Positions 1-11,747 of a DNA stretch of 11,747 bases are shown here, piece after piece (the first letter of the stretch is position 1; each line of letters starts with the position of its first letter). Source of the DNA: a virus (Duplodnaviria > Heunggongvirae > Uroviricota > Caudoviricetes); the IMG/VR virus record IMGVR_UViG_2671180828_000003. One strand, given 5' to 3'. The position numbers were made by a program, and so were the translations under genes. Under the pieces are notes generated by a model that saw only the letters and a list, made by a program, of their open reading frames with translations, was not told where the DNA came from and ran no database searches.

Positions 1-259
1 TACATGAGAAGAATAAGCTATAGGTCTTTCTTTTAAAGTTTTATTTATTGCATTAGTGCCTTTATCTTTTTGTACTTTGTAGGTAGTGGAAGTAAAGGTA
101 ATGAAAGGAAGAAAAGAATGAGCTGCAACAGCTCGAGGGTTTGTTACTATGTCTAAAGCGTGTTCAATGGAAATTGGCTTATCGAAATGAAGATAACCAC
201 GCTTCCTAAACCAAGGATGTTCACGGGATTCCATTTTGTGAATTCTCAAAATTGTGAAA

Positions 260-305
260 CCGGGGCAATTTCGAACTGCGGTCGTTCAGAAAAACATTGC
301 CCCGG
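260..305. repeat. Perfect 10-bp inverted repeat with a 26-nt spacer holding a nested 4-bp hairpin
   Basis: CCGGGGCAAT (260-269) and ATTGCCCCGG (296-305); the spacer contains GAAC-tgcggtc-GTTC. On the minus strand it is followed by TTTCACAATTTTG. Confidence 0.6.
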
Positions 306-394
306 CTTAACAAAGTGGTCTTTATCCAACCTTCTCATACACATAGCACTACAAGTAGGCTAAGTGCATTTCACCGCAAATGTTAGAAACACTG

Positions 395-400
395 TATAAT
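395..400 (+). promoter_or_regulatory. Consensus -10 hexamer TATAAT (candidate plus-strand promoter)
   Basis: Exact TATAAT in an AT-rich context, preceded by TG at 393-394; no good -35 (TTTCAC lies 20 nt upstream). About 15 nt upstream of GGAG and an ATG. Confidence 0.25.
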
Positions 401-424
401 GTAATCAGTATCATGGAGACCGTT

Positions 425-526
425 ATGAGCATCGTCCACCTGTTAATCAGCCTCTGGGAGGTATTCAGCGAAGGTCGCTGTCCGAGAGTTGACAACCTGT
501 ACATCACCCCTAAGCCTTACGCTTAG
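425..526 (+). CDS. Candidate small ORF (33 aa) with hydrophobic N-terminus; unknown function
   Basis: GGAG (415-418), 6-nt spacer, ATG 425; product MSIVHLLISLWEVFSEGRCPRVDNLYITPKPYA. The stop TAG lies in the 3' arm of hairpin CCCTAAGC-CTTAC-GCTTAGGG (508-528). Below the track's size cutoff; coding status unproven. Confidence 0.2.
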   Translation: MSIVHLLISLWEVFSEGRCPRVDNLYITPKPYA

Positions 527-682
527 GGCGATTAATTTATAGCATTTAGTAATGCTTAGTGACAAGTAGAATTTCAATAACATGGCCAATTTTTATATTC
601 ATAACTGTCATAATTTAAATGAGATCAATATTACTTCAGCTTATCTCCAAACTATCGATATAAAAACGATTCCGGCCCAATG

Positions 683-713
683 AGAAAGCCCCGCATATGC
701 GGGGCTTTCTTTT
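683..713. terminator. Strong hairpin terminator between ogr and the AT-rich flank, possibly bidirectional
   Basis: AGAAAGCCCCGC-ATAT-GCGGGGCTTTCT, a perfect 12-bp stem. The plus strand follows with TTTGG (T-tract TTTCTTTTGG); the minus strand follows with CATTGG (weaker tract). Starts 3 nt after the ogr stop. Confidence 0.7.
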
Positions 714-715
714 GG

Positions 716-937
716 TCACTGCCAGTGCATTTGTTGCTGGCCTGAAGATGAAGGGTGCGGTGCCGCTGGTACTACAACCCCCGGCGATACGATAAAGCGC
801 TCGACCGTCTCAGTGGTAACAAACGTCGCGCTGCAGTTGATGTTTGTGCACTGGTGATAGCGCTCTTTGGTCGTGTCAGTAAAATAGCGACTTGTGCGGG
901 CGTGAGCGGCAAAATGGCATTTTGGACAGTGAAACAT
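716..937 (-). CDS. ogr: Ogr/Delta-family zinc-finger late transcription activator
   Basis: 73-aa product MFHCPKCHFAAHARTSRYFTDTTKERYHQCTNINCSATF... with a CxxC...CxxxxC motif, matching my recollection of P2 Ogr (72 aa). ATG at 937..935 has a GAGGTG Shine-Dalgarno 6 nt upstream; the track ORF starts at GTG 946, which I consider a less likely start. Sits immediately downstream of D as in P2. Confidence 0.85.
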   Translation of the reverse strand: MFHCPKCHFAAHARTSRYFTDTTKERYHQCTNINCSATFVTTETVERFIVSPGVVVPAAPHPSSSGQQQMHWQ

Positions 938-1013: not shown

Positions 1014-2183
1014 TCACTGCGTTAATTCTTCGCTTTCGTACTCCACATCCGAAACCTTAACCTCAAGCTCTAAGCCCGTCGTGTAGCCGCTCCCGTTGAG
1101 GTTATGCACCACCCTACTGATTATCCACGCCTGATCGTCTATGACACGCTTAAACCCTTTCACCGCGACTGGCGTTTCAGGAAATAAATCTGCCCGGCCA
1201 ATCGCCAGCGAAATTGAAAACTCCGCGACACCTCGCTGCAGCTTGTCCCACTTCGCCTGAGCGGCGCGCATGGCCTGCGCCTTTGTCGCGTAAATGGTCG
1301 TCAGCTCCAGCACGTTGTCAGCCTCACCGGCCATATACTCACCCTCGCGCGCTTCCTGCTCTTTTTTGGCTATGGCCTTTGCCGGTGCTTTGGTCGCTTT
1401 CGGGTGCTGCAGCGCGCGGAGGTGTTGCTCTTTGGGCTTTCTCTTGAGCTTCACCTTTTGCTTTTGCGGCTTTGGGTCTTTGGTGTGCAGCCACTTTGCC
1501 GTAACGCCGGTGTAGGCTTCCCGGTCAGCAATGGCAAACTGATGACGATCGCCGTCCCCGCGCTCAAGCGTCATCTGCGGAATGGGCTTTCCGCTGGCAG
1601 TCTTACCGCTCCCCGCTTTCAGGAATAACAGTTTCCCTGCTTTTACCGAAACCGACGCCCCGTTCCGTTCCGCCAGGCGGGACAGAAACACCGCGTCTGA
1701 TTCCTGCGACTGGTCAATGTGAGGCACGGCGACGGCTTTCAGCATGTCGGCCACGCTGGCCGTCAGCTTATTGCGTGCCGCAATCGTCTCCACAATTTGC
1801 CCGAGCGTGGTGTCGTGCCATGACTGTTCCCGGCGAGAGTTCAGCGACCCGCGAAAATCGGCGCTTCGCCCCCGGATGGTAAGCGTATCAGGCGCGCCCC
1901 TGTGCTCGATTTCGTCGACCGTGAACGTCCCTTTTTTTATCAGCGCGGAATCCTGCCAGCCTAACCACAGCGTCAACGTTGCGCCACGCGGTGGCAAAGC
2001 TATCTGACCGTCAGTGTCATCGAGCTCGATATCGAGCTGGTCGGCCTCGAATCCGCGATTGTCGGTCATGGTCAGGCTGATAAGGCGGTTACTAAAATCC
2101 TGCGTGATATCGTCGTTATCCAGCTTGAGCATAAACGCCGGGGCTATCTTCGCCCCGGCCTGAATATTCATACCCGTAATCAT
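1014..2183 (-). CDS. D: Tail protein D (late control gene D family)
   Basis: 389-aa ORF, the last large gene of the FI-FII-E-T-U-D operon. Its ATG overlaps the U stop (ATGA), indicating translational coupling. Length and position match P2 gpD. Confidence 0.85.
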   Translation of the reverse strand: MITGMNIQAGAKIAPAFMLKLDNDDITQDFSNRLISLTMTDNRGFEADQLDIELDDTDGQIALPPRGATLTLWLGWQDSALIKKGTFTVDEIEHRGAPDTLTIRGRSADFRGSLNSRREQSWHDTTLGQIVETIAARNKLTASVADMLKAVAVPHIDQSQESDAVFLSRLAERNGASVSVKAGKLLFLKAGSGKTASGKPIPQMTLERGDGDRHQFAIADREAYTGVTAKWLHTKDPKPQKQKVKLKRKPKEQHLRALQHPKATKAPAKAIAKKEQEAREGEYMAGEADNVLELTTIYATKAQAMRAAQAKWDKLQRGVAEFSISLAIGRADLFPETPVAVKGFKRVIDDQAWIISRVVHNLNGSGYTTGLELEVKVSDVEYESEELTQ

Positions 2184-2644
2184 CCCGCCAGCCCTCCCAG
2201 CCAGTCACCGGCAGACGTGACCAGATTGTCAGCCTGCGTTTTCAGGTCGCCATAAATGGCCGCCAGCGATTTATCGACCCGCTTAAGCGAAAGGCTAAAC
2301 TCGATTTTTCTCGCCGCTCCGTCGCTGAATAGCTCGGTGTGCGTGTGCGTCACTTTGTCGATGACATACATGCCGTGGATCATGCCCGTTCCGTCAATCA
2401 GCGGCCACGCGCGCCCCTCGTCTGCCATCAGCTCGATGGCGGTCAGTGACAGACGCCCCCCGGTAATTTCGGGATAGAGCACGCCCGACAGCGTGCGCGT
2501 GGTTTCACCTTCCCCGAGATACTGGTAAGCCGGTGGCTTGCCGATACGGTCGTTTGACGCCCAGCGGTAATCCTTTGAATACTGCATGGACTGATAGGGC
2601 AGCGTGCGGCGCTCAAACACAAACAAACCTAAAACCATTAACAT
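2180..2644 (-). CDS. U: Tail protein U (tail tube terminator / tail completion)
   Basis: 154-aa product starting MLMVLGLFVFERRTLPYQSMQYSKDYRW..., closely resembling recalled P2 gpU. A GGGGGA Shine-Dalgarno sits 6 nt upstream; the gene lies 12 nt downstream of the T stop. Confidence 0.85.
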   Translation of the reverse strand: MLMVLGLFVFERRTLPYQSMQYSKDYRWASNDRIGKPPAYQYLGEGETTRTLSGVLYPEITGGRLSLTAIELMADEGRAWPLIDGTGMIHGMYVIDKVTHTHTELFSDGAARKIEFSLSLKRVDKSLAAIYGDLKTQADNLVTSAGDWLGGLAG

Positions 2645-2656
2645 GCTTTATCCCCC

Positions 2657-5104
2657 TCAGTCATGGCGCATACTTGAGCGCTTACGCGCACGGTTTTCAC
2701 GGTCGAATCTATCGACAGCCTCGCGGAGTTGCCGGTCAAGGTCGCTGCCCGGCGCGATGCCACCATTCAGGTTGATGTTATATTCAGGCTTGCTCTGGTC
2801 GACGTAAGTCTTACCAGTGGGTGCTGTTACCGGCTGATATGCCTGATAACCGCCATATGCTGAGGTTGCCGGAATATAAGCCCCATTTTGCGAGCCGGTG
2901 GCGGCACTGGCTTTAGCGGCCTTCTGGTCAAGGTCGCTCGATTCTTTATTGATAACCCCGAGCTTTTCCAACAGCCAGTTAACGCCGGTGCGCAATGTAT
3001 TAAAGCTTTTGAGCGGTAACATCAGCGCTTCGGCCAGCATCTTACCGAACATCACACCCGCATTTTTGCAGCTGTCGAGCGTCTCCTGCGTCGACTTAAC
3101 CGGGGCTATCAGGTCTTTAAACCACTGCCATGCCGCTTTCAGTTTGTCACCCAGCCAGTCAAAAACCGGCTTTAACGGTTCGAATAGTTCCACTACAGGG
3201 GCAAAAGCCTGCTTTAGCCCCTCCATTACGCCTGAGAAAAACGCGCTTATGGGCTCCCAGTATTTGCGGATAAGCAGCGCACCGGCGACGATGGCAACGC
3301 CAATAGCCACTATCGGCCAGGTAAGCGCCCCGAGCACGGCCATAATGGCACCACCCACCACCGAGAAAATCGTTCCTAGCAGCGATGCACCGGCTATTAA
3401 CATATTAATGCCGGTAATAACCGGCCAGGCAACGAGACCAATTGCCCCGAGGATGCCAATAATTGCCAGTGCACCGCCTGCGATGATGCCGATGGTTTGC
3501 GCCAGCCCCTGATTTTTCTGGATCCAGCCGTCGAGCTTTAACACATATTTCGTGGCGGTCTGGGTGAGCTTTCGCAGTGAGCCCTCCTGCTGGTCAAACA
3601 GGTCAGTACCGACGGCCTCATAGGCTGACTGGAATTCTTTGAAGTCACCGCCGAGGTTGTCCTGCATAATTTTAACGAGCTCAGCGGTTTTCCCGTCCGA
3701 GGCTTTAAACGCCGCCGTGAGCTGGTCGAGCTTGCCGCTTGAGGCAGCGGTCATCAGTACCGCCGCCGCCGAGCTGGCTTCCTCACCAAAGATGGTTTTC
3801 ATGTACTCGCCTTTCTGGCTTGTTCCGAGATTATTTTTCTCAAAACTGCGCTGCATTTCTTTCAGAATGGCGAATATCGGGCGCGTGTTGCCCTTGCTGT
3901 CAGACGTTTTAACGCCGAGCTCTTTGATAGCCTCGTATGCCTTACCGGTCGGAGCCTGCAGGCGACTCAGGACGGCACGGCTGCCCGTCCCCGCCATCGA
4001 GCCGGTGATTTTGGCGTCATGGAGCGCGCCGACCATTGCGGCGGTCTGCTCGATACTGACCCCGGCATTTTTTGCCACCGGCGCAGCATACGTCAGCGCG
4101 TCGCTCAGCCCGTCAAAGTCAGCAGCCGTTTTGTTCATGGTCATCGACAGCACGTCGCCGATGTGTGCGATCTGGTCGTTTGACATCTGAAACGCGGATT
4201 TCATACCCGTCAGCAGCGCGGCGTTTTCTTCCATCGAGCGACGGTTAGACAGCGCCATATTCAGCGTGACCGGCGTCGCCGCCTGAATCGCTGCGGCATC
4301 CCCGCCGCTTTTCGCAATGATAATCTGCGCGCTCGCCGCATCATCTGCAGACGCAGCGGTATTATCCCCGAGCTGGCGCGCCTGTTTGCGCAGCGCCTCC
4401 ATTTCGGGTGACTGTTTATCAACGCCGAGCACGGCCTGCAGCTCAGAGTTTTTCTGTGCAAACTCATAACCGGGCGAGAGTAATTTCACTCCGGCCATTG
4501 TTCCCGCAGTGGCGATACCGACGCCCGCCGCGCCTGCCGCTGCAGCGCCTCCGGCAAGGGATTTACCGGCCTGATAACGCTCTTTAACGCGACTGAGTCG
4601 CGCCTGCTGTTGACTGACCCGCGCCAGTGCCTCGCGCTGCCGGTTAAGTTGCGCGGTCGTCTCACTGATGCTGGTTTTCAGGCGGCGCTCATCCGCCGAG
4701 AGAGTACGGGAGTTAATCCCGGCCTGCGCGAGCTCGGTGCGCTGGCGCTGTACCGACTGCCTGAGGCTGTTGTATTTGAGCTGCAGGTCAGCGGCGGATT
4801 TCTTTGCCGCCTCCATCGCGCGCGCCTGCGCGGTTGTAGGGTTCTGCGTGTTTTTAAACTGGACGGCCAGCGCGGCGGCTTCCTGTTTCGCCTTGTTAAG
4901 CGACTGGCCTGTCACGGCAAGCTGTGCGCTCGCTTTCCTGAATCCGTCAATTCGTCCAGCCTGCGCATTCAGATCGCGCAGGCTGTTCTGAGAAGTGCGG
5001 ATATCGCCAGCAAGGGTCTTGCTGGCAGTCTGGATAGCTTTGAGCGGTCGGCTTGCCCGGTCTACTGCGTTCAGCAGTACCTCAATCCTGACGTTATTGC
5101 TCAT
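2657..5104 (-). CDS. T: Tail tape measure protein
   Basis: 815-aa ORF. The N-terminal half is rich in A/Q/R/L/K, consistent with coiled coil; a Gly/Ala/Ile-rich hydrophobic segment sits mid-protein. It follows E/E' and precedes U, the canonical tape-measure position. Confidence 0.9.
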   Translation of the reverse strand: MSNNVRIEVLLNAVDRASRPLKAIQTASKTLAGDIRTSQNSLRDLNAQAGRIDGFRKASAQLAVTGQSLNKAKQEAAALAVQFKNTQNPTTAQARAMEAAKKSAADLQLKYNSLRQSVQRQRTELAQAGINSRTLSADERRLKTSISETTAQLNRQREALARVSQQQARLSRVKERYQAGKSLAGGAAAAGAAGVGIATAGTMAGVKLLSPGYEFAQKNSELQAVLGVDKQSPEMEALRKQARQLGDNTAASADDAASAQIIIAKSGGDAAAIQAATPVTLNMALSNRRSMEENAALLTGMKSAFQMSNDQIAHIGDVLSMTMNKTAADFDGLSDALTYAAPVAKNAGVSIEQTAAMVGALHDAKITGSMAGTGSRAVLSRLQAPTGKAYEAIKELGVKTSDSKGNTRPIFAILKEMQRSFEKNNLGTSQKGEYMKTIFGEEASSAAAVLMTAASSGKLDQLTAAFKASDGKTAELVKIMQDNLGGDFKEFQSAYEAVGTDLFDQQEGSLRKLTQTATKYVLKLDGWIQKNQGLAQTIGIIAGGALAIIGILGAIGLVAWPVITGINMLIAGASLLGTIFSVVGGAIMAVLGALTWPIVAIGVAIVAGALLIRKYWEPISAFFSGVMEGLKQAFAPVVELFEPLKPVFDWLGDKLKAAWQWFKDLIAPVKSTQETLDSCKNAGVMFGKMLAEALMLPLKSFNTLRTGVNWLLEKLGVINKESSDLDQKAAKASAATGSQNGAYIPATSAYGGYQAYQPVTAPTGKTYVDQSKPEYNINLNGGIAPGSDLDRQLREAVDRFDRENRARKRSSMRHD

Positions 5105-5557
5105 GGTGGTGTCCGCTTCGCTGCAGCGCCTTTTCGCGCCATGTGATGAGCTCGGTCACGCTCAGGGAATTCAGCTCTGATGGCGGCCAGTGAAATATCA
5201 CCGCGATATCCGCCATCAGGTCATCGACCGAAAGGTTGTCCGGGAACGTCAGCGAGCCGAAGATGGCGACAAAAAACCGACCACCTTACCGGCGAACAAA
5301 ATCAGGTCTGATGCTTCCAGACGCATGACCTCGGGCTCGGTCAGCGCCGGGTACGTCATGCGCGGCAGCACCTTAATCAGCGCATCGACGTCAGAGTTTG
5401 CCAGCGAGGCCAGACTCACACCGCGCAGAGTACCGGCGTTGGGTTTGGACACGGTCACCTGTTCGATTTTTTGCTCACCGCGCATGATTGGATTATCGAG
5501 GATCACAATGTTTGGGTTTTCGGTTTCGATGGTGGCGGTTTCGTTGATGTTTTCCAT
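5094..5557 (-). CDS. E': E+E' fusion product made by programmed -1 ribosomal frameshift (about 154 aa)
   Basis: Hand translation of the -1 frame after the heptamer at 5270-5276 gives an open extension VAIFGSLTFPDNLSVDDLMADIAVIFHWPPSELNSLSVTELITWREKALQRSGHHHEQ, ending at TAA 5096..5094, which overlaps the first codons of T. Confidence 0.7.
5249..5557 (-). CDS. E: Tail assembly chaperone E
   Basis: 102-aa ORF directly upstream of T. Its 3' end contains the slippery heptamer T_TTT_TTG, the P2 E/E' arrangement. Confidence 0.85.
   Translation of the reverse strand: MENINETATIETENPNIVILDNPIMRGEQKIEQVTVSKPNAGTLRGVSLASLANSDVDALIKVLPRMTYPALTEPEVMRLEASDLILFAGKVVGFLSPSSAR
5270..5276 (-). other. Slippery heptamer T_TTT_TTG (programmed -1 frameshift site)
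   Basis: Minus-strand sequence GG TTTTTT G; in the E frame the codons are GGT TTT TTG, giving the X_XXY_YYZ pattern, 22 codons before the E stop. Confidence 0.7.
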
Positions 5558-5617
5558 GATGTTGCTCTCTTTGAATGTGAGTAAGTGACCGGCCAGCCTG
5601 GCTGACCGGTTAACGGG

Positions 5618-6136
5618 TTACAGGCCAATCGCCCGGCGGTGCTCAGCGAGACGGTCAACGCCGTCGACTTTCATCACCATGTTGACGACGTCAATCTCGA
5701 TGACCTCTTTGCCGTCAATCGTGAGCTGGTAATACGAGCACTCGGTCGCGATTTTGGTCGTGCCGCTTTCGCCCTGTTTGTTCTCGCCGCCGTCGTACTC
5801 CTTGTGACGGCCACGCATGACCACCTCAACGGCGGAAATTGCGCCGGTATCATCGCGCTGGAATGAGCCGGTGAAGCGCAGCGGCACGCTGTCGGCACCC
5901 GGTGACGCATACTGCGCCCACAGCGCGACGTCAGGCAGGCCGCCCAGCGTCCACTCAAGCGACAGCGCGTCGTCGTCGAGGCCGAGGTCAATAGACACCG
6001 AGCCCGGCATCCCGCCGCCGCGATATTTCTCAAGCTTGCGGGTCAGCTTTGGCAGGGTGACGGATTCAACGACGCCCATGTAGCTGAGACCGTCGTTAAA
6101 CATGTTCAGGTATTTCAGTTTGCGTGGTAACGCCAT
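5618..6136 (-). CDS. FII: Tail tube protein
   Basis: 172-aa product MALPRKLKYLNMFNDGLSYMGVVESVTLPKLTRKLEKYRGGGM..., strongly resembling recalled P2 gpFII (also 172 aa); lies directly downstream of the sheath gene. Confidence 0.9.
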   Translation of the reverse strand: MALPRKLKYLNMFNDGLSYMGVVESVTLPKLTRKLEKYRGGGMPGSVSIDLGLDDDALSLEWTLGGLPDVALWAQYASPGADSVPLRFTGSFQRDDTGAISAVEVVMRGRHKEYDGGENKQGESGTTKIATECSYYQLTIDGKEVIEIDVVNMVMKVDGVDRLAEHRRAIGL

Positions 6137-6148
6137 GCTCTGAGCTCC

Positions 6149-7342
6149 TTAGCTGTTGACCGAGTCTGACAGGTCTGCCAGATAGGTATCGGTGATGCGC
6201 TGGCGCAGGGTCAGGTTTTCCAGCGGCGGGACGGGGGTGTAGTCGTAATCGATATACAGTTTCCCGGCTTTGAGGGTTTCCACGCTGTTTGACTCCGGGT
6301 CGTACCAGCAGGAGCCGTCAACGATATAGCCGTTGTTTTTCAGCTCGCGGAATTTGGCATTGATACCGGCGACGATGTCGCGGATGAGCGTTGCAGAAAC
6401 GGGCTTATCCATCGCCCACGCGTGCGCTTCCGCCATCGTGTCGGCCAGCACCTGCGCCGTGCGGGTGTAGTTTTCAAACACGAATAATGGATCGTCCGAG
6501 CAGGTTCGGTTACCCCAGAATTTAAAGCCATCGTTGCGGATGAGCGTTGTCACCCCGGCCTGATTCAGCAGGTTGGCGTCGGTGGCCTGCTCCTGCAAAT
6601 CCCATGAGACCGAGGCGCTGACGCCGGTGACGCCATTCACGCCGACGTTGGACAGCGTTTTGTGCCAGCCGGTATCCTGGTCGATTCTGGCGCGCAGGCC
6701 GAGCGCGCGGGCGGTCGCCCATGCAATATCGGTTTCGTTCGCCGTGGTGTCCCATGCCAGAAAATCAGGGTGAATGACCATGAGCTCGCGCTGGCTGAAG
6801 TTCTCACGGTATTTAATGGCGTCGGAAATGGTCTTGCAGCCCCACGCGCTCACATAGCCGAACGCGCGCAGGCTCTGGCAGGTCGACGCAAGAGCGGTCG
6901 CCACTTCCTGCGTATCCAGCCCCGGCACGCCGAGAATGCGCGGCTTAACACCGGTGACGGTTTTCGCTGTTAACAGCGCTTTCAGCCCGGTGTATTTGCC
7001 GTTTTCGTCGGTCGTGCCGATGATGTTGGAAATGGTTTCTTTCTGCGCCGCTTCCGGGTCTGACGGGTCGTCGACACCTTCGGGAACGCGCACCACCACA
7101 ATGACCGGCTTGCACTGGTCGGCAATGGCCTGCAGGGATTTTGCCAGCGTGCCTTTTTTACCGGCCTTACCGATCGCCGTTTGCACGCTGGTAATCAGCA
7201 CCGGCTCGTTCAGGGGGAATGTCTTTGCGTCAGCATCGCTGGCCGTGCAGACCATGCCGATGATGGCCGTCGAGACGGTGGAAATGGTGCGCGTGCCATC
7301 ATTAATCTCGATGACCTCGACGCCGTGATGATAGTCGCCCAT
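6149..7342 (-). CDS. FI: Contractile tail sheath protein
   Basis: 397-aa product from the internal ATG at 7342 (MGDYHHGVEVIEINDGTRTISTVSTAIIGMVCTASDADA...), matching recalled P2 gpFI (396 aa). GGAG sits 8 nt upstream. The track ORF extends to 7438, but that extension runs into the promoter/terminator region and is rejected. Confidence 0.9.
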   Translation of the reverse strand: MGDYHHGVEVIEINDGTRTISTVSTAIIGMVCTASDADAKTFPLNEPVLITSVQTAIGKAGKKGTLAKSLQAIADQCKPVIVVVRVPEGVDDPSDPEAAQKETISNIIGTTDENGKYTGLKALLTAKTVTGVKPRILGVPGLDTQEVATALASTCQSLRAFGYVSAWGCKTISDAIKYRENFSQRELMVIHPDFLAWDTTANETDIAWATARALGLRARIDQDTGWHKTLSNVGVNGVTGVSASVSWDLQEQATDANLLNQAGVTTLIRNDGFKFWGNRTCSDDPLFVFENYTRTAQVLADTMAEAHAWAMDKPVSATLIRDIVAGINAKFRELKNNGYIVDGSCWYDPESNSVETLKAGKLYIDYDYTPVPPLENLTLRQRITDTYLADLSDSVNS

Positions 7343-7378
7343 CTGTTTAACTCCGTGGTTAGGGGTGCGACTATTTTC

Positions 7379-7433
7379 TGTTGTGTGTCGCGCAGGCGCG
7401 ATGCAATGCCGTTGGTGGAGGGATAACACAACA
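7379..7433 (-). promoter_or_regulatory. Nested dyad symmetry in the G-FI gap; candidate late promoter or operator region for the FI operon
   Basis: 8-bp inverted-repeat arms TGTTGTGT (7379-7386) and ACACAACA (7426-7433) enclose an inner palindrome TCGCGC-AG-GCGCGA (7388-7401). Lies between the terminator after G and the FI Shine-Dalgarno. No exact TGT-N12-ACA Ogr site found. Confidence 0.3.
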
Positions 7434-7435
7434 TA

Positions 7436-7462
7436 CAAAAAAGCCCTCCGGGTGGAGGGCTT
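7436..7462 (-). terminator. Rho-independent terminator ending the V-W-J-I-H-G operon
   Basis: Minus strand reads AAGCCCTCC-ACCC-GGAGGGCTT followed by TTTTTTG: a 9-bp GC-rich stem, 4-nt loop and T-tract, starting 4 nt after the G stop. Confidence 0.75.
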
Positions 7463-7465
7463 CGT

Positions 7466-8062
7466 TTATTCAGGTCTTTCCGGCCACTCAATATACGGCG
7501 CAGCAGAGGTGTCGATCACGTTCAGCGACTGAATGTATTTCATCCACGCAATCAGGCTGGCCTTGTCATCGTCGCTGATGATGCCGAGCTGCAGCTCAGT
7601 CTGCCACAGGCTGATAGTGCTTTGTGCCTTATTCAGCAGCGCGGATTTTTTCTGTTCTGCCTCCTTAACCTGACCGTTTTTCTGCGCGTCCTTATCCGTG
7701 ACCCATTCGCTACCGTTCCAGCGGTCACAGGGGGTAGACGGTGCAAACGTAGTTACACCGGGGGCATAGTCACCGGGTGCGGTAATGTTGACCGGCTGAC
7801 CGGTTTCCGTGTCATAAACCGTCTCACCGCGATGGTCTGCGACATACTCCCACCCGTCAAGACTGGCCGCTCGGCACACCGCGAAACCCTCCTTTTTTTC
7901 GACCGGTGCATCGGTGCAGGAATTAGCAGGAATCCCCACGCCCAGCGCCAGAAACTCGACAGAGGACGTCAGATATTCGCGGGTTTCACCGTCATAGTTA
8001 TAAACCGTCATATCACCGGCTTTTGTGGTAATGCCCTGTTTGTTAAGTGTCGCTTTTGCCAT
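7466..8062 (-). CDS. G: Tail fiber assembly protein (Tfa chaperone)
   Basis: 198-aa ORF immediately downstream of the tail fiber gene (TAATG stop/start overlap). The C-terminal region ...LWQTELQLGIISDDDKASLIAWMKYIQSLNVIDTSAAPYIEWPERP looks like the conserved tail fiber assembly domain. Confidence 0.85.
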   Translation of the reverse strand: MAKATLNKQGITTKAGDMTVYNYDGETREYLTSSVEFLALGVGIPANSCTDAPVEKKEGFAVCRAASLDGWEYVADHRGETVYDTETGQPVNITAPGDYAPGVTTFAPSTPCDRWNGSEWVTDKDAQKNGQVKEAEQKKSALLNKAQSTISLWQTELQLGIISDDDKASLIAWMKYIQSLNVIDTSAAPYIEWPERPE

Positions 8063-9048
8063 TATGCCGCCCTCACGATGTAGTTAAATGCAATGTTGCG
8101 TGGGCGAGCGCCGAATGATGACCGTTGACCACCAATTGAAGAAATCAGCCCTGCGGTATTTACATGTGACCATGACGGGCTGTTGTCGACAACGCTGTCG
8201 AAATCACTCAATGGGATATATGCGGTCCCATCTGAATGACCACCGAGGAACATCCCAACTCCAGAGCCGACCTGAGCGGATAATAGCGCTCGTCCATTGT
8301 CTATCCCGCGCCCGTCATCCCACCCTCGCAAAAACTCACCGCGCAAGTCAGGCAATTTACCGGATGGATAAGCGACAGCCAGCTTTGGATATTTCACCTT
8401 GTCAAAAACCGCGCCGTTGCATTTAAGCCAGCCCTCCGGCGGTGTTGCCTGCGGCCACGGCAGCGGAAAACCGACCGGAATGTATTTATCAATATCCGCC
8501 GTTTTGAGGTATTGCGTGTGCGGGTCTGCAGCGGCGAGGTGTGCGGCCAGCAGATTATCGGCATAGGCTTTCACCTCGATAACCTTATCCTCGACATACT
8601 GCCGCGTTGCCAGCACCACCGACGGGTCGATTTTCAGGGTAACGGCCGACGTGCTCGACACAATCAGAATCATGCGAATGGTCTGCGTGCGGCCGCTTCC
8701 CTCCTGCAGTTGCGGTTTGTAGGTCTCCGGGCAGTTTGCCACGGCAATCAGAATCCCCTCATCATCGTAGAGACCAATCTCTCGGATCCAGAAACCGCCC
8801 TCATTCTCGGGAATAATTTGTTCCGCGATAATCTGGCTGGTATTGGCCGGATCAACGTTCAGCAGGTTCAGCGGCGCGATGCGCTTCTGGTTAATGAGCT
8901 TCGTCTGCGCCGGGTCAGGTGTAGGCAGCGTACCATTCGCATCACCGACGGCCATCTGCGTCAGGTTTAGTCTGGTACCGAGTGCCGCCGCGTTCGCCAG
9001 CCGCGCCGCGCCCTGATTGGTCAGAATGGCTAAATATTTTGCGGTCAT
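8062..9048 (-). CDS. H: Tail fiber protein (P2 H-like N-terminal domain, tail-collar-type C-terminal domain)
   Basis: 328 aa. The N-terminus (MTAKYLAILTNQGAARL...QMAVGDANG...GGFWIREIGLYDDEGILIAVAN...EGSGRTQTIRMILIVSS) resembles the recalled baseplate-attachment region of P2 gpH. The C-terminus (GWLKCNGAVFDKVKYPKLAVAYPSGKLPDLRGEFLRGWDDGRG) fits the phage tail collar motif. Confidence 0.85.
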   Translation of the reverse strand: MTAKYLAILTNQGAARLANAAALGTRLNLTQMAVGDANGTLPTPDPAQTKLINQKRIAPLNLLNVDPANTSQIIAEQIIPENEGGFWIREIGLYDDEGILIAVANCPETYKPQLQEGSGRTQTIRMILIVSSTSAVTLKIDPSVVLATRQYVEDKVIEVKAYADNLLAAHLAAADPHTQYLKTADIDKYIPVGFPLPWPQATPPEGWLKCNGAVFDKVKYPKLAVAYPSGKLPDLRGEFLRGWDDGRGIDNGRALLSAQVGSGVGMFLGGHSDGTAYIPLSDFDSVVDNSPSWSHVNTAGLISSIGGQRSSFGARPRNIAFNYIVRAA

Positions 9049-9653
9049 GCGTTCACTCTCAGGTTATCAATCAAATGGATGGCCGAGGCCGGGTAATATT
9101 CACCGCCGACGACAATTTCCTCGGGGGTGTAGGGGTAAACGGTGAGCGCGTCGCCGTCGTAGCATCCCGCGCCGACATACAGCTCGCCGGTGGCACTCAG
9201 GCTGATAGCCAGCCCGGTGAGGTGGCGGCTTGCCGGTTTGGCGTCATCAATCAGGCGCTCGAGCTCCTGATACATTTCATCAGTGATGCCGCTGTCGAGC
9301 ACGCCGACAACGAGGCGGAAAGTGCCTGGCGCCTCGTTGAGCTGCCACCACTCGCGCACCTCAATCAGAAAGCCGAGCGGCTCAACCACCCGACGCAATG
9401 CGCTGATGGTGCCTTTGTGCTGATGGACGAAAAACGAAGATGCGCAGACGCTGCGCTTTGTCGCCTCCGGCCACTTCTCATCCCACCGGTCGACCGACAG
9501 CGCCCACGCCAGATACGGCAGCAGGTTTACCGGGCAGGTGCGCCAGTTCCACAGAGTGCGGAGCGTTACCGGCACGCGCTGAATCTCAGAGAGCGCGGCA
9601 GCGGCGGCAACCTCCAGCGGCGACGAGCCAACGGGTAACAGCCGGTCACTCAT
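9045..9653 (-). CDS. I: Baseplate protein I (tail fiber attachment)
   Basis: 202-aa product MSDRLLPVGSSPLEVAAAAALSEIQRVPVTLRTLWNWRTCPVNLLPYLAWALSVDRWDEKWPEATKR..., strongly resembling recalled P2 gpI; overlaps the J stop and the H start. Confidence 0.85.
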   Translation of the reverse strand: MSDRLLPVGSSPLEVAAAAALSEIQRVPVTLRTLWNWRTCPVNLLPYLAWALSVDRWDEKWPEATKRSVCASSFFVHQHKGTISALRRVVEPLGFLIEVREWWQLNEAPGTFRLVVGVLDSGITDEMYQELERLIDDAKPASRHLTGLAISLSATGELYVGAGCYDGDALTVYPYTPEEIVVGGEYYPASAIHLIDNLRVNA

Positions 9654-10554
9654 CCGAGCCCCCGATAGTTATCTGGTACTCGGTACAGTTCGACGCCTGC
9701 GACTTGCTCAGCACAATATCGGCCTGTGGTGATGCCAGCTCGACACGCTGTACCCCCTCAACATGCAGCACCGCGTAAATGGCTGACAGCCGGATATCAC
9801 GCCCGAGGCGGTGCTGCGCGCTGATATAACTCTGCAGCTTCTGCTCTGAGGCCTGCCTGATGGGTTCAGATTCGGGACCGGGGTAAACGTATATCGTCGC
9901 GTCAATCTGGTACGGCACAATTTCGGCTGACTGGACGGTCACCCGGTCAGCCAACGGGCGCACATCTTCGGCGTTCAGTGCTTTTTCAACGATTGCCAGT
10001 AACTCAGGGCTCGCGGTGCCGTCACCCTCACGGGATAACACGGAAATCGTCACGCAGGCGGGCGACGGGCTTTCGACAGAGACGTCGGCGACCCGTCCGT
10101 CAGCGCTTCGACCGTGATACTCATAAGCGCCAACCGGACCCGCCACACTTAATCCTTCAAAAGCTTGTTGTGTGCGCAGTCGCAGGTCAGCATCTGATTC
10201 CATAACGGCAGGCGTTGGCGGTATGGTGGTGTCATCAGCAGGGGTAATGGTCAGGCGTCCGGTATTATTGTTCCCGGCCACAACGTCAAGGTCGCGACCG
10301 GTTGAATAGGCCAGCGTTACCGCCTGCGCGGCTTCGTTCACACGCTGACGCCAGATAACTTCACGATAGGCGTTTTCCTGTAACAGCTTAACAATCGGCT
10401 CTGATTCAAGTGTGAGCGTCCGGGCAATGGCCTCCTGCTGGTCTTCAGGATAGAGTGAAATTAGCGTCGCAATGCGTTCGGCAAGAATGGTTTCAAAGTC
10501 CAGTTCTTCCACCACATCGGGAACGGGTAACTGATTCAGGTCAACGGTTGCCAT
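9646..10554 (-). CDS. J: Baseplate assembly protein J
   Basis: 302-aa ORF in the canonical position between W and I; length is consistent with P2 gpJ. Confidence 0.85.
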   Translation of the reverse strand: MATVDLNQLPVPDVVEELDFETILAERIATLISLYPEDQQEAIARTLTLESEPIVKLLQENAYREVIWRQRVNEAAQAVTLAYSTGRDLDVVAGNNNTGRLTITPADDTTIPPTPAVMESDADLRLRTQQAFEGLSVAGPVGAYEYHGRSADGRVADVSVESPSPACVTISVLSREGDGTASPELLAIVEKALNAEDVRPLADRVTVQSAEIVPYQIDATIYVYPGPESEPIRQASEQKLQSYISAQHRLGRDIRLSAIYAVLHVEGVQRVELASPQADIVLSKSQASNCTEYQITIGGSDE

Positions 10555-10560
10555 AGTGAT

Positions 10561-10911
10561 TTAACTCAGTGGAATGGTGATGGAAAATGGCTGGCCGCCG
10601 GTCGAGCGGGTGCCGGTGATGTCGACATACAGCCCGCCGTCGGTCTCCGACCGTTCAAAGGTAATGGTCGAGAGGTCTACGCGTGGCTCCCACTTCTGGA
10701 TCGCGGAATAGCACGCGGCCATAATCTGCAGGCGCAGCGCCGGGGTCTGCGGCTGGTCAATCATCTGCGACAGGAGCGAGCCGTATTCACGGCGCATGAC
10801 ACGCGACCCAACCGGCGTGACCAGAATGTCGCGCACGCTTTGCCGGATGTGCTCAACCTCAGAGATACTGAGGCCGGTCCGGCTGTTCATTCCCAGATAA
10901 CGCACCGTCAT
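10561..10911 (-). CDS. W: Baseplate protein W (gp25-like)
   Basis: 116-aa product MTVRYLGMNSRTGLSISEVEHIRQSVRDILVTPVGSRVMRREYGSLLSQMIDQPQTPALRLQI..., closely resembling recalled P2 gpW (115 aa); its ATG overlaps the V stop. Confidence 0.85.
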   Translation of the reverse strand: MTVRYLGMNSRTGLSISEVEHIRQSVRDILVTPVGSRVMRREYGSLLSQMIDQPQTPALRLQIMAACYSAIQKWEPRVDLSTITFERSETDGGLYVDITGTRSTGGQPFSITIPLS

Positions 10912-11549
10912 TGCGTCCCCTTTGTCCAGCTTCCGCCGCTCTGTACGTTGCCGTGCGCGTGGTTATCCACCTGCACGCCGTTTGATTTCAGTATCCCGCC
11001 GGTGTGCTCGATGCTCCCACTCATCTTCCCGCCTTTCAGCACTTCGAGCGTGCCGGTCGTAAGCTTGTTGGTGCAAACCACCTCCGGCGTATCGAGCGTG
11101 ATACGACTCGACGCTTTCACCAGCACCACCGGTACGGTGGCCGTAATGGAATCCGACGCGGTGACGTCAGCGGTTTTGATACCTGACACGGTGAGCGCGC
11201 CGTTTTCGGGCTCATACTCGATAACCGCCCCGTCAGGAAAGGACATGTGAAACGCATCAGGGGAGGCTGACGGCGCGGGATTGTCGTCAGAGAAAATGCC
11301 GGGCAGCACAAAGGCCGTATCGAGCTCGCCGCCGACAGCAAGTACAAGCACCTGCTCGCCGACGGACGGAGCCCACCATACGCGCGAGCGACCGGCGCGA
11401 CAGGCCAGCCAGTTCAGCCAGGTGGTTTGCATGCCGCCGGTCTGGACACGACACAGCCCCTCGTCGTGGTCGACGTCGGTCACGATGCCGGTGCGGATAA
11501 GGTTGCGGATCGCGCGTGCGATTTCCTGCAGAGAATTTAGATTATTCAT
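10908..11549 (-). CDS. V: Baseplate spike / hub protein V
   Basis: 213 aa from the ATG at 11549 (MNNLNSLQEIARAIRNLIRTGIVTDVDHDEGLCRVQTGGMQTTWLNWLACRAGRSRVWWAPSVGEQVLVLAVGGELDTAFVLPGI...), matching recalled P2 gpV (211 aa). The track ORF's 40-codon upstream extension is rejected. No obvious Shine-Dalgarno before this ATG. Confidence 0.85.
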   Translation of the reverse strand: MNNLNSLQEIARAIRNLIRTGIVTDVDHDEGLCRVQTGGMQTTWLNWLACRAGRSRVWWAPSVGEQVLVLAVGGELDTAFVLPGIFSDDNPAPSASPDAFHMSFPDGAVIEYEPENGALTVSGIKTADVTASDSITATVPVVLVKASSRITLDTPEVVCTNKLTTGTLEVLKGGKMSGSIEHTGGILKSNGVQVDNHAHGNVQSGGSWTKGTQ

Positions 11550-11632
11550 GGGGAAAGGATGCCGCTTGGTAAATTCATCGGCAATCGAGCGAAGTTTTGT
11601 CAGGAATGGAACAACAGGCAAGGAATTGAGAT

Positions 11633-11659
11633 TATTAGAAAGGCGGACGAACCCGCCTT
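11633..11659 (-). terminator. Candidate rho-independent terminator upstream of V
   Basis: Minus strand reads AAGGCGG-GTTCGT-CCGCCTT followed by TCTAATAAT: a 7-bp GC stem and 6-nt loop with a moderate T-rich tail, about 10 nt after the TAA at 11670-11672. Confidence 0.5.
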
Positions 11660-11669
11660 CCTGAATCAA

Positions 11670-11747
11670 TTAAAAACTATTAATAACTTCATTTTTCTTC
11701 AAAGAGGAATATATTCTATTTACACACCACAACAACAAGGAAACCAT
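11670..11747 (-). CDS. Possible 3' end of an AT-rich minus-strand ORF running off the window edge (or a 25-aa micro-ORF); unknown product
   Basis: Only one minus-strand frame is open from the window edge to TAA at 11672..11670 (...MVSLLLWCVNRIYSSLKKNEVINSF*). Codons are AT-rich, unlike the phage genes. Too short to judge coding status. Confidence 0.2.
   Translation of the reverse strand: MVSLLLWCVNRIYSSLKKNEVINSF

Follow-up and report, generated by a model that had tools for sequence, protein, structure and literature searches.

The segment from position 11550 to position 11747 of the 11,747-nucleotide stretch analysed here (the window) corresponds to the downstream junction of a horizontally acquired, low-GC island of approximately 2.2 kb, which lies between genes S and V of a P2-like prophage of E. 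coli and Enterobacter and bears a gene whose likeliest role is in anti-phage defence or exclusion. We put the probability of this reading at about 0.8. The anatomy of the segment, in which the end of the cargo gene is followed by a hairpin, by the late promoter of V (P_V) and then by a leaderless V, can be assigned with high confidence. An uncharacterised cargo gene is thus present in the already known S-V slot, beside an ordinary P_V. The earlier note on this DNA had proposed either an unusually long, AT-rich S-V spacer or foreign cargo inserted between the preceding operon and V. The second proposal proved correct, as a 2.2-kb low-GC island with a 598-aa open reading frame (ORF) lies between S and V, and the first had to be abandoned, because the frame at the window edge continues into this ORF. 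The AT-rich edge is therefore explained by a cargo, and is neither gene S nor a spacer.

The reverse complement of the window matches the E. coli assembly GCA_041099655.1 (L001) from position 9803, with 5 mismatches over 10,840 bases, and this assembly was used to extend the window past its edge. The window also matches public contigs of E. coli and Enterobacter, and the exact V protein is found on many public contigs. The minus-strand genes of the window constitute a P2-like tail module (D, U, T, E, FII, FI, G, H, I, J, W and V). The features discussed below are the following.

716..937, minus strand: ogr (PF04606, Ogr_Delta), whose 73-aa product, encoded after D, is a zinc-finger late activator with the V dyad as its expected target
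10908..11549, minus strand: gene V (baseplate spike), 213 aa, with its ATG at 11549-11547, assigned by translation and by the Pfam domains Phage_base_V and Phage_spike on an identical protein
11556..11561, minus strand: -10-like hexamer CATCCT, at -12 to -7 relative to the A of the V ATG, assigned by conservation in relatives
11597..11616, minus strand: putative Ogr binding dyad TGTTGT-N10-ACAA of the V late promoter, assigned by alignment with the annotated P2 activator site
11617..11636, no strand: boundary where the cargo island meets the phage backbone, the right-hand end of the island in phage orientation, placed by BLAST homology and the rise in GC
11637..11662, minus strand: GC-rich hairpin with a 10-bp stem and a 6-nt loop, found by folding, which starts 7 nt after the cargo stop codon
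11670..11747, minus strand: last 25 codons and TAA of the 598-aa cargo ORF, ending in MVSLLLWCVNRIYSSLKKNEVINSF, which maps to L001 8084-9880

Two further observations concern the backbone. Three contigs encoding an identical V protein (L004, L006 and L007) diverge beyond T, at about 18800-20500, where they carry Caudo_TAP tail-fibre-assembly genes, a resolvase/invertase and IS1 or YnaE, with no U-D-ogr, which suggests that they are rearranged or truncated prophage copies. The tail-fibre gene H (8062-9048, minus strand) encodes 328 aa, as against 625-642 aa in Citrobacter-type relatives, and its receptor-binding part evidently differs among relatives.

The AT-rich composition upstream of V was confirmed, with 38.9% GC at 11550-11747 compared to 57.8% in the phage genes at 1014-11549. 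The drop is really limited to 11620-11747 (32.8%), as the stretch from 11550 to 11619 contains 50% GC, and the profile across the junction thus shows an AT-rich island followed by backbone from about 11620. In L001, S occupies positions 7319-7780 and is followed by a gap of 303 bp (30% GC), the ORF at 8084-9880, a gap of 120 bp and V at 10001. The GC content of the ORF is 33.6%, whereas the flanking backbone has 57-58% and the phage 57.5%. Rightward extension placed the S homologue 2.2 kb from V, and not within tens of base pairs of 11747.

The limits of the island were drawn by comparison with relatives bearing other cargo. BLAST homology to these relatives stops at L001 7663-7756, within the last 25-115 nt of S, and restarts at L001 9930-9952 (window 11620-11598), at or within the V dyad. 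In L016 and L017 the restart point coincides with the dyad or just precedes it; in L019 and in phage ENT4 it falls inside the dyad or shortly past it. Phages with different cargo are unrelated in sequence upstream of the dyad and conserved downstream of it. The last 66 nt of S (L001 7713-7780 region) contain 25-38% GC in L001, L010, L016, L017, L019 and L020, and 51% in P2. Since the 3' end of S, encoding the C-terminal residues (approximately 20), is AT-rich and variable in the enterobacterial relatives, the variable cassette starts inside S. These limits suggest that cassettes are exchanged by recombination between the 3' region of S and the P_V dyad.

At this position P2 carries the non-essential orf30, of 261 aa and on the opposite strand. 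The orf30, TO and Z regions have been described as three sites for horizontally acquired genes in P2-like phages (PMC3091744), and phage R18C bears a different ORF in the orf30 slot (PMC6823313). A 2026 preprint reported defence hotspots within P2 late genes, which we do not equate here with the S-V slot. Among the relatives, the slot holds a full-length Tin homologue in the E. coli P2-like prophage L016 (2501-3214, minus strand; PADLOC E 2e-88), a PIN_12 protein in ENT4 and a 543-aa uncharacterised protein in L017; in L030, S adjoins V and the slot is empty. The cargo studied here is absent from P2 and most of its relatives, and from all 5,426 complete E. coli genomes searched. In P2 itself tin resides in the Q-A region, yet its homologue in L016 sits in the S-V slot, which implies that defence genes move between the two slots. 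Together with the presence of the cargo family studied here in both slots, this is further evidence for an exchange of cargo between the old/tin hotspot, which is well known, and the S-V (orf30) slot, which has received little study.

The sequence in front of V shows the features of a normal P2-type late promoter. The earlier note had pointed to an imperfect TGT-N13-ACA dyad at 11598-11616 as an anomaly. The dyad is present at that position, but is better described as TGTTGT-N10-ACAA, and it belongs to normal P_V architecture. It aligns with P2 positions 10239-10266, annotated in NC_001895 as 'activator binding site; activation of pV promoter'. The centre of TTGT...ACAA lies 56.5 nt upstream of the V ATG, as compared to 57 nt in P2. 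L010, L016, L017 and L019 share this dyad and its distance from the ATG; ENT4 has it in the same position with a right half that reads ATAA, and L020 retains the TGTTGT half only. By itself the dyad pattern is not rarer than expected by chance (2 matches with at most one mismatch versus 3.6 expected), so that statistical significance of the dyad on its own was rejected; its significance lies in the conservation of its position in relatives.

The lack of a Shine-Dalgarno sequence before V, likewise raised as an anomaly, was confirmed, as GGCATCCTTTCCCC precedes the ATG at 11549, but it is normal for the V late promoter and expected, because V of P2 is transcribed as a leaderless mRNA. In the P2 record, transcription of the V operon starts at 10308, on the very first base of the V coding sequence, and P2 counts as a classic source of leaderless genes (PMC4633059, with reference to Christie and Calendar 1985). 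In addition to the missing Shine-Dalgarno sequence, V has an ATG start, as it does in all relatives compared, and a -10 element ending approximately 7 nt before it. Across 7 enterobacterial relatives the motif GGCGGCATCCTT(T/C)(C/A)C(C/G)(C/T)-ATG is conserved, and CATCCT retains the key A and T positions. The features of an Ogr-dependent promoter are also present, namely a dyad homologous to the P2 site at a similar distance and an ogr gene in the same element (716-937). By homology with the P2 annotation, transcription of V most likely starts on the A of its ATG, giving a leaderless V mRNA in this phage. The TGTTGT-N10-ACAA dyad and the CATCCT -10 hexamer would thus direct a transcript from the V ATG, which would undergo leaderless translation. 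The odd-looking start of V matches the normal leaderless late promoter of P2-like phages.

The window contains another late promoter, P_F (7428-7460), which is leadered, unlike P_V. It comprises a canonical terminator after G (GCCCTCC-ACCC-GGAGGGC and a T-run, 7460-7443, minus strand) and TGTTGT at 7433-7428; the FI ATG (7342) lies 91 nt downstream of TGTTGT and has a GGAG Shine-Dalgarno sequence.

The GC-stem hairpin terminator that the earlier note had placed at 11633-11659 is real as a hairpin, at 11637-11662, but it is not a canonical terminator. Its stem contains 7 perfect G/C-rich pairs (AAGGCGG/CCGCCTT), and in a 56-nt context it folds with -18.3 kcal/mol (z = -3.37; 2 of 200 shuffles were equally good). 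The tail that follows on the gene strand is UCUAAUAAUCU, with only 3 U in the 8 nt past the stem. Because of this tail the terminator scan called 0 sites at the cargo-V hairpin, and a canonical intrinsic terminator was rejected for the missing U-run. Probably the hairpin acts as a weak terminator or as an insulator, or else stabilises the cargo transcript at its 3' end. That it works as a functional rho-independent terminator has, in our estimation, slightly less than an even chance. Such a function would fit the stable stem beginning 7 nt past the stop codon, the canonical hairpin followed by TTTTCAT at the equivalent place in the Citrobacter allele (62% identical) and the similar succession of a terminator and TGTTGT at the F promoter of the window. 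Against it stand the 3 U in 8 nt, the silence of the terminator scan and the L020 allele, which has no hairpin; the L013 allele has one. In the arrangement that we propose, the hairpin would end or stabilise the cargo transcript and shield the tail operon from read-through; the phage backbone restarts approximately 20 nt past it, at the Ogr-dependent P_V.

The cargo ORF is the single gene of the island and lies on the same strand as S and V. Its last 25 codons form the minus-strand frame open from 11747 to the TAA at 11672-11670, which is the true C-terminus of the 598-aa ORF and would encode the end of a predicted C-terminal membrane helix and a short cytoplasmic tail. The edge-truncated AT-rich frame described previously is therefore real, although it is not the sole frame open to the edge, as plus-strand frame 3 is open for 207 nt; the latter found no support as a gene. 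The ATG of the cargo gene is preceded at 5 nt by GGAG. An identical protein is encoded in E. coli, Enterobacter asburiae and E. roggenkampii, and all copies are annotated as hypothetical. In some E. coli (L002 8085-9880; P0164, P0168, P0170 and P0176) the ORF is split into 185 aa and 431 or 409 aa, or truncated to other lengths, which points to frameshifted or pseudogenised copies and implies that the gene is dispensable.

Homology searches linked the cargo protein to no function in Pfam, NCBIfam, PADLOC or PHROGs. The search of the extended ORF against defence collections, proposed earlier, yielded 0 matches in PADLOC-DB 2.0; there was no match in Pfam or NCBIfam and only noise in PHROGs. Sixty distant family members compared with Pfam, NCBIfam, PADLOC and PHROGs likewise gave noise only, with a single marginal PADLOC match (E 0.008), and a Toast_rack_N match in one distant member (E 0.096) and a DUF456 match were discarded as noise. 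A sequence-profile search of the PDB found no solved relative, a literature search by protein accession found nothing, and tblastn against 50,697 phage records found no copy; one distant copy was detected by tblastn on a Rhizobium plasmid.

The family itself is large. Close homologues form 14 clusters, all of approximately 598 aa, in Cronobacter, Citrobacter, Xenorhabdus, Pantoea and Yersinia. An 85-sequence alignment, used in a second, word-indexed search for homologues, returned the close family only, and a search for related loci with the close alignment found only 1 genome locus and 3 viral loci. A profile search covering 1.84 billion representatives retrieved 286 representatives at E<=1e-3 (286 clusters at 50% identity), nearly all of 570-620 aa and matching over their full length. 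They span Gamma-, Beta- and Alphaproteobacteria, and no member is annotated.

Hydropathy and an AlphaFold model (pLDDT 72.5) predict membrane helices at approximately 21-45, 86-101, 103-128, 134-160 and 173-202, and a C-terminal one at 566-588, and the same model predicts a beta-rich domain of about 340 residues at 207-547. The positive clusters KRK16-18, KK162-163 and the C-tail are all located in predicted cytoplasmic segments, so that the beta domain is predicted to be periplasmic. The cargo would thus be an inner-membrane protein with five N-terminal helices, a periplasmic beta domain and a C-terminal anchor. Among 60-85 distant members, G38, Q42, D122, N144, G147, C285, C417, R551, T555, W557 and E558 are invariant or nearly so. 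D122 lies in helix 3, N144 and G147 in helix 4, and R551, T555, W557 and E558 just before the last helix, where a conserved R-x-N-x-T-x-W-E motif adjoins the membrane. A disulfide likely links C285 and C417, in keeping with a periplasmic location. Conservation is stronger in the membrane module and the membrane-adjacent motif than in the beta domain.

All loci examined lie on mobile elements, and the cargo gene is always solitary. They are distributed as follows.

S-V slot of P2-like phages: L001; L010-12 and L019 (62% identity); L020 (49%)
Q-A slot (old/tin hotspot): L013 (40%); L021 (36%); L025, in Klebsiella, beside PARIS AriA/AriB; L030, beside a DUF4760 protein
Integrative/conjugative elements: L008, beside MobA; L031, with TraG, ParE/RelB and ThiF with JAB
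Rhizobium plasmid: L029, flanked by RES-Xre and PIN-HTH pairs
Island with D5_N primases: L022, beside HEPN_AbiU2
Inovirus prophage edge: L023, beside ParDE
Beside a resolvase and a primase island: L024
Edge of an unrelated prophage: L018

The backbone proteins of L019 and L020 are mostly 65-95% identical, so that the cargo (62% and 49%) is far more diverged than the backbone. A DUF4760 protein adjoins the cargo homologue in L030 (7194-7694, Q-A slot) and in L024 (11745-12386, a Burkholderia island), and it may be a recurrent neighbour of the family.

Elsewhere in the same prophage, an RT-12 RNA (Rfam RF03016, 87 bits, E 3.5e-14) was found at window positions 251-385 (minus strand), downstream of ogr. 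It is followed on the extended contigs L026-L028 (8950-10239) by a 429-aa RVT_1 reverse transcriptase that crosses the left edge of the window. The GC content of window positions 1-715 is 37-41%. Between ogr and the end of the prophage there thus seems to be a cargo of retron type, a second low-GC, defence-type module of this prophage.

From its architecture and neighbours, we give even odds to the cargo being an anti-phage or exclusion factor. Such a 'moron' would protect the lysogen or the element from other phages or incoming DNA, either through envelope-level exclusion or through abortive infection that acts at the membrane. The association of the family with defence hotspots is suggestive only. 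More tentatively, and with somewhat more doubt than belief, we propose a new single-gene inner-membrane family of anti-phage or DNA-entry-exclusion proteins, with at least 286 clusters and a fold without a solved relative, that moves between P2 hotspots, conjugative elements, plasmids and filamentous prophages. In these proteins the variable beta domain would sense or block a phage component, and the conserved membrane module, with its invariant membrane Asp, would be the effector. As a single gene of an unannotated family with no detectable structural relative, most examined copies of which lie beside defence or toxin-antitoxin genes, the cargo is a compact candidate for cloning; if active, it would represent a new membrane-level defence or exclusion family.

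An unlikely, though not negligible, alternative is a lysogenic-conversion or envelope factor unrelated to defence, acting on LPS, peptidoglycan or a lipid carrier, or conferring on the host a trait of fitness or virulence. Such a role could suit a polytopic membrane protein whose predicted periplasmic domain is large, the more so as Q42, D122, N144, R551, T555, W557 and E558 cluster near the periplasmic membrane face and could form an active site, and P2 defence hotspots are known to hold non-defence cargo as well, for example partition systems and toxins (PMC9122126). However, the protein has no similarity to glycosyl-, acyl- or other transferase or envelope enzyme families, the genes around it belong to defence and toxin-antitoxin systems and not to surface polysaccharides, and the solitary gene has none of the partners usual in seroconversion operons.

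It is less probable still that the cargo is a late-expressed phage accessory, read from the O operon and involved in lysis timing or in blocking re-adsorption or re-infection by the progeny. The gene is co-oriented with S and V within the late gene cluster, and read-through from the late O operon may be all that transcribes it: just one weak terminator-like site (L001 7881-7906) separates it from S, and no convincing sigma-70 promoter was found upstream, the matches being no more frequent than in shuffled sequences. Yet members of the family also occupy the Q-A slot, conjugative elements, a plasmid and the edge of an inovirus prophage, where P2 late transcription does not operate, and P2 and most of its relatives lack the gene. 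Finally, a long non-coding S-V spacer, or the 3' end of S in the edge frame, could be considered only because 25 codons are visible inside the window, so that extension was needed to exclude either; the chance of this is minimal, as gpS (PF05069) is encoded at L001 7319-7780, 2.2 kb upstream of V, and the edge frame leads into an ORF that has no Pfam match and is conserved at 17-87% identity over hundreds of clusters.

The anti-phage or exclusion reading can be set against known systems. P22 SieA and T4 Imm are prophage superinfection-exclusion membrane proteins. By analogy, the cargo would resemble them as a single, element-borne inner-membrane protein with no partner gene, its membrane location being predicted. 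It differs in being much larger (598 aa) and in its big predicted periplasmic beta domain, and no homology to them was found, PHROGs included.

The other comparisons are with P2 itself. Its V promoter (Christie and Calendar 1985, as annotated in NC_001895) is similar to the one described here in the distance of the dyad, the absence of a -35 element and of a Shine-Dalgarno sequence, the ATG start and the presence of ogr; it differs in the dyad spacer (N11 in P2, N10 here) and in the -10 region (CAATCT/AATCTC in P2, CATCCT here). The orf30 region of P2 is alike in its S-V position, its non-essential content, its foreign composition and its variation between related phages. Orf30 itself, of 261 aa and encoded on the opposite strand, is unrelated in sequence to the cargo, a predicted membrane protein of 598 aa encoded on the late-gene strand, and the variable segment here also takes in the last 20 or so codons of S, unlike the orf30 region as described for P2. 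The Q-A ('TO') region is a defence hotspot (Rousset et al. 2022, PMC9122126), and in one Klebsiella prophage a cargo homologue lies there beside PARIS. The cargo resembles neither Tin nor Old nor any PADLOC model in sequence or fold. Its family shares with Tin the occurrence in both the Q-A and the S-V slots of P2-like phages.
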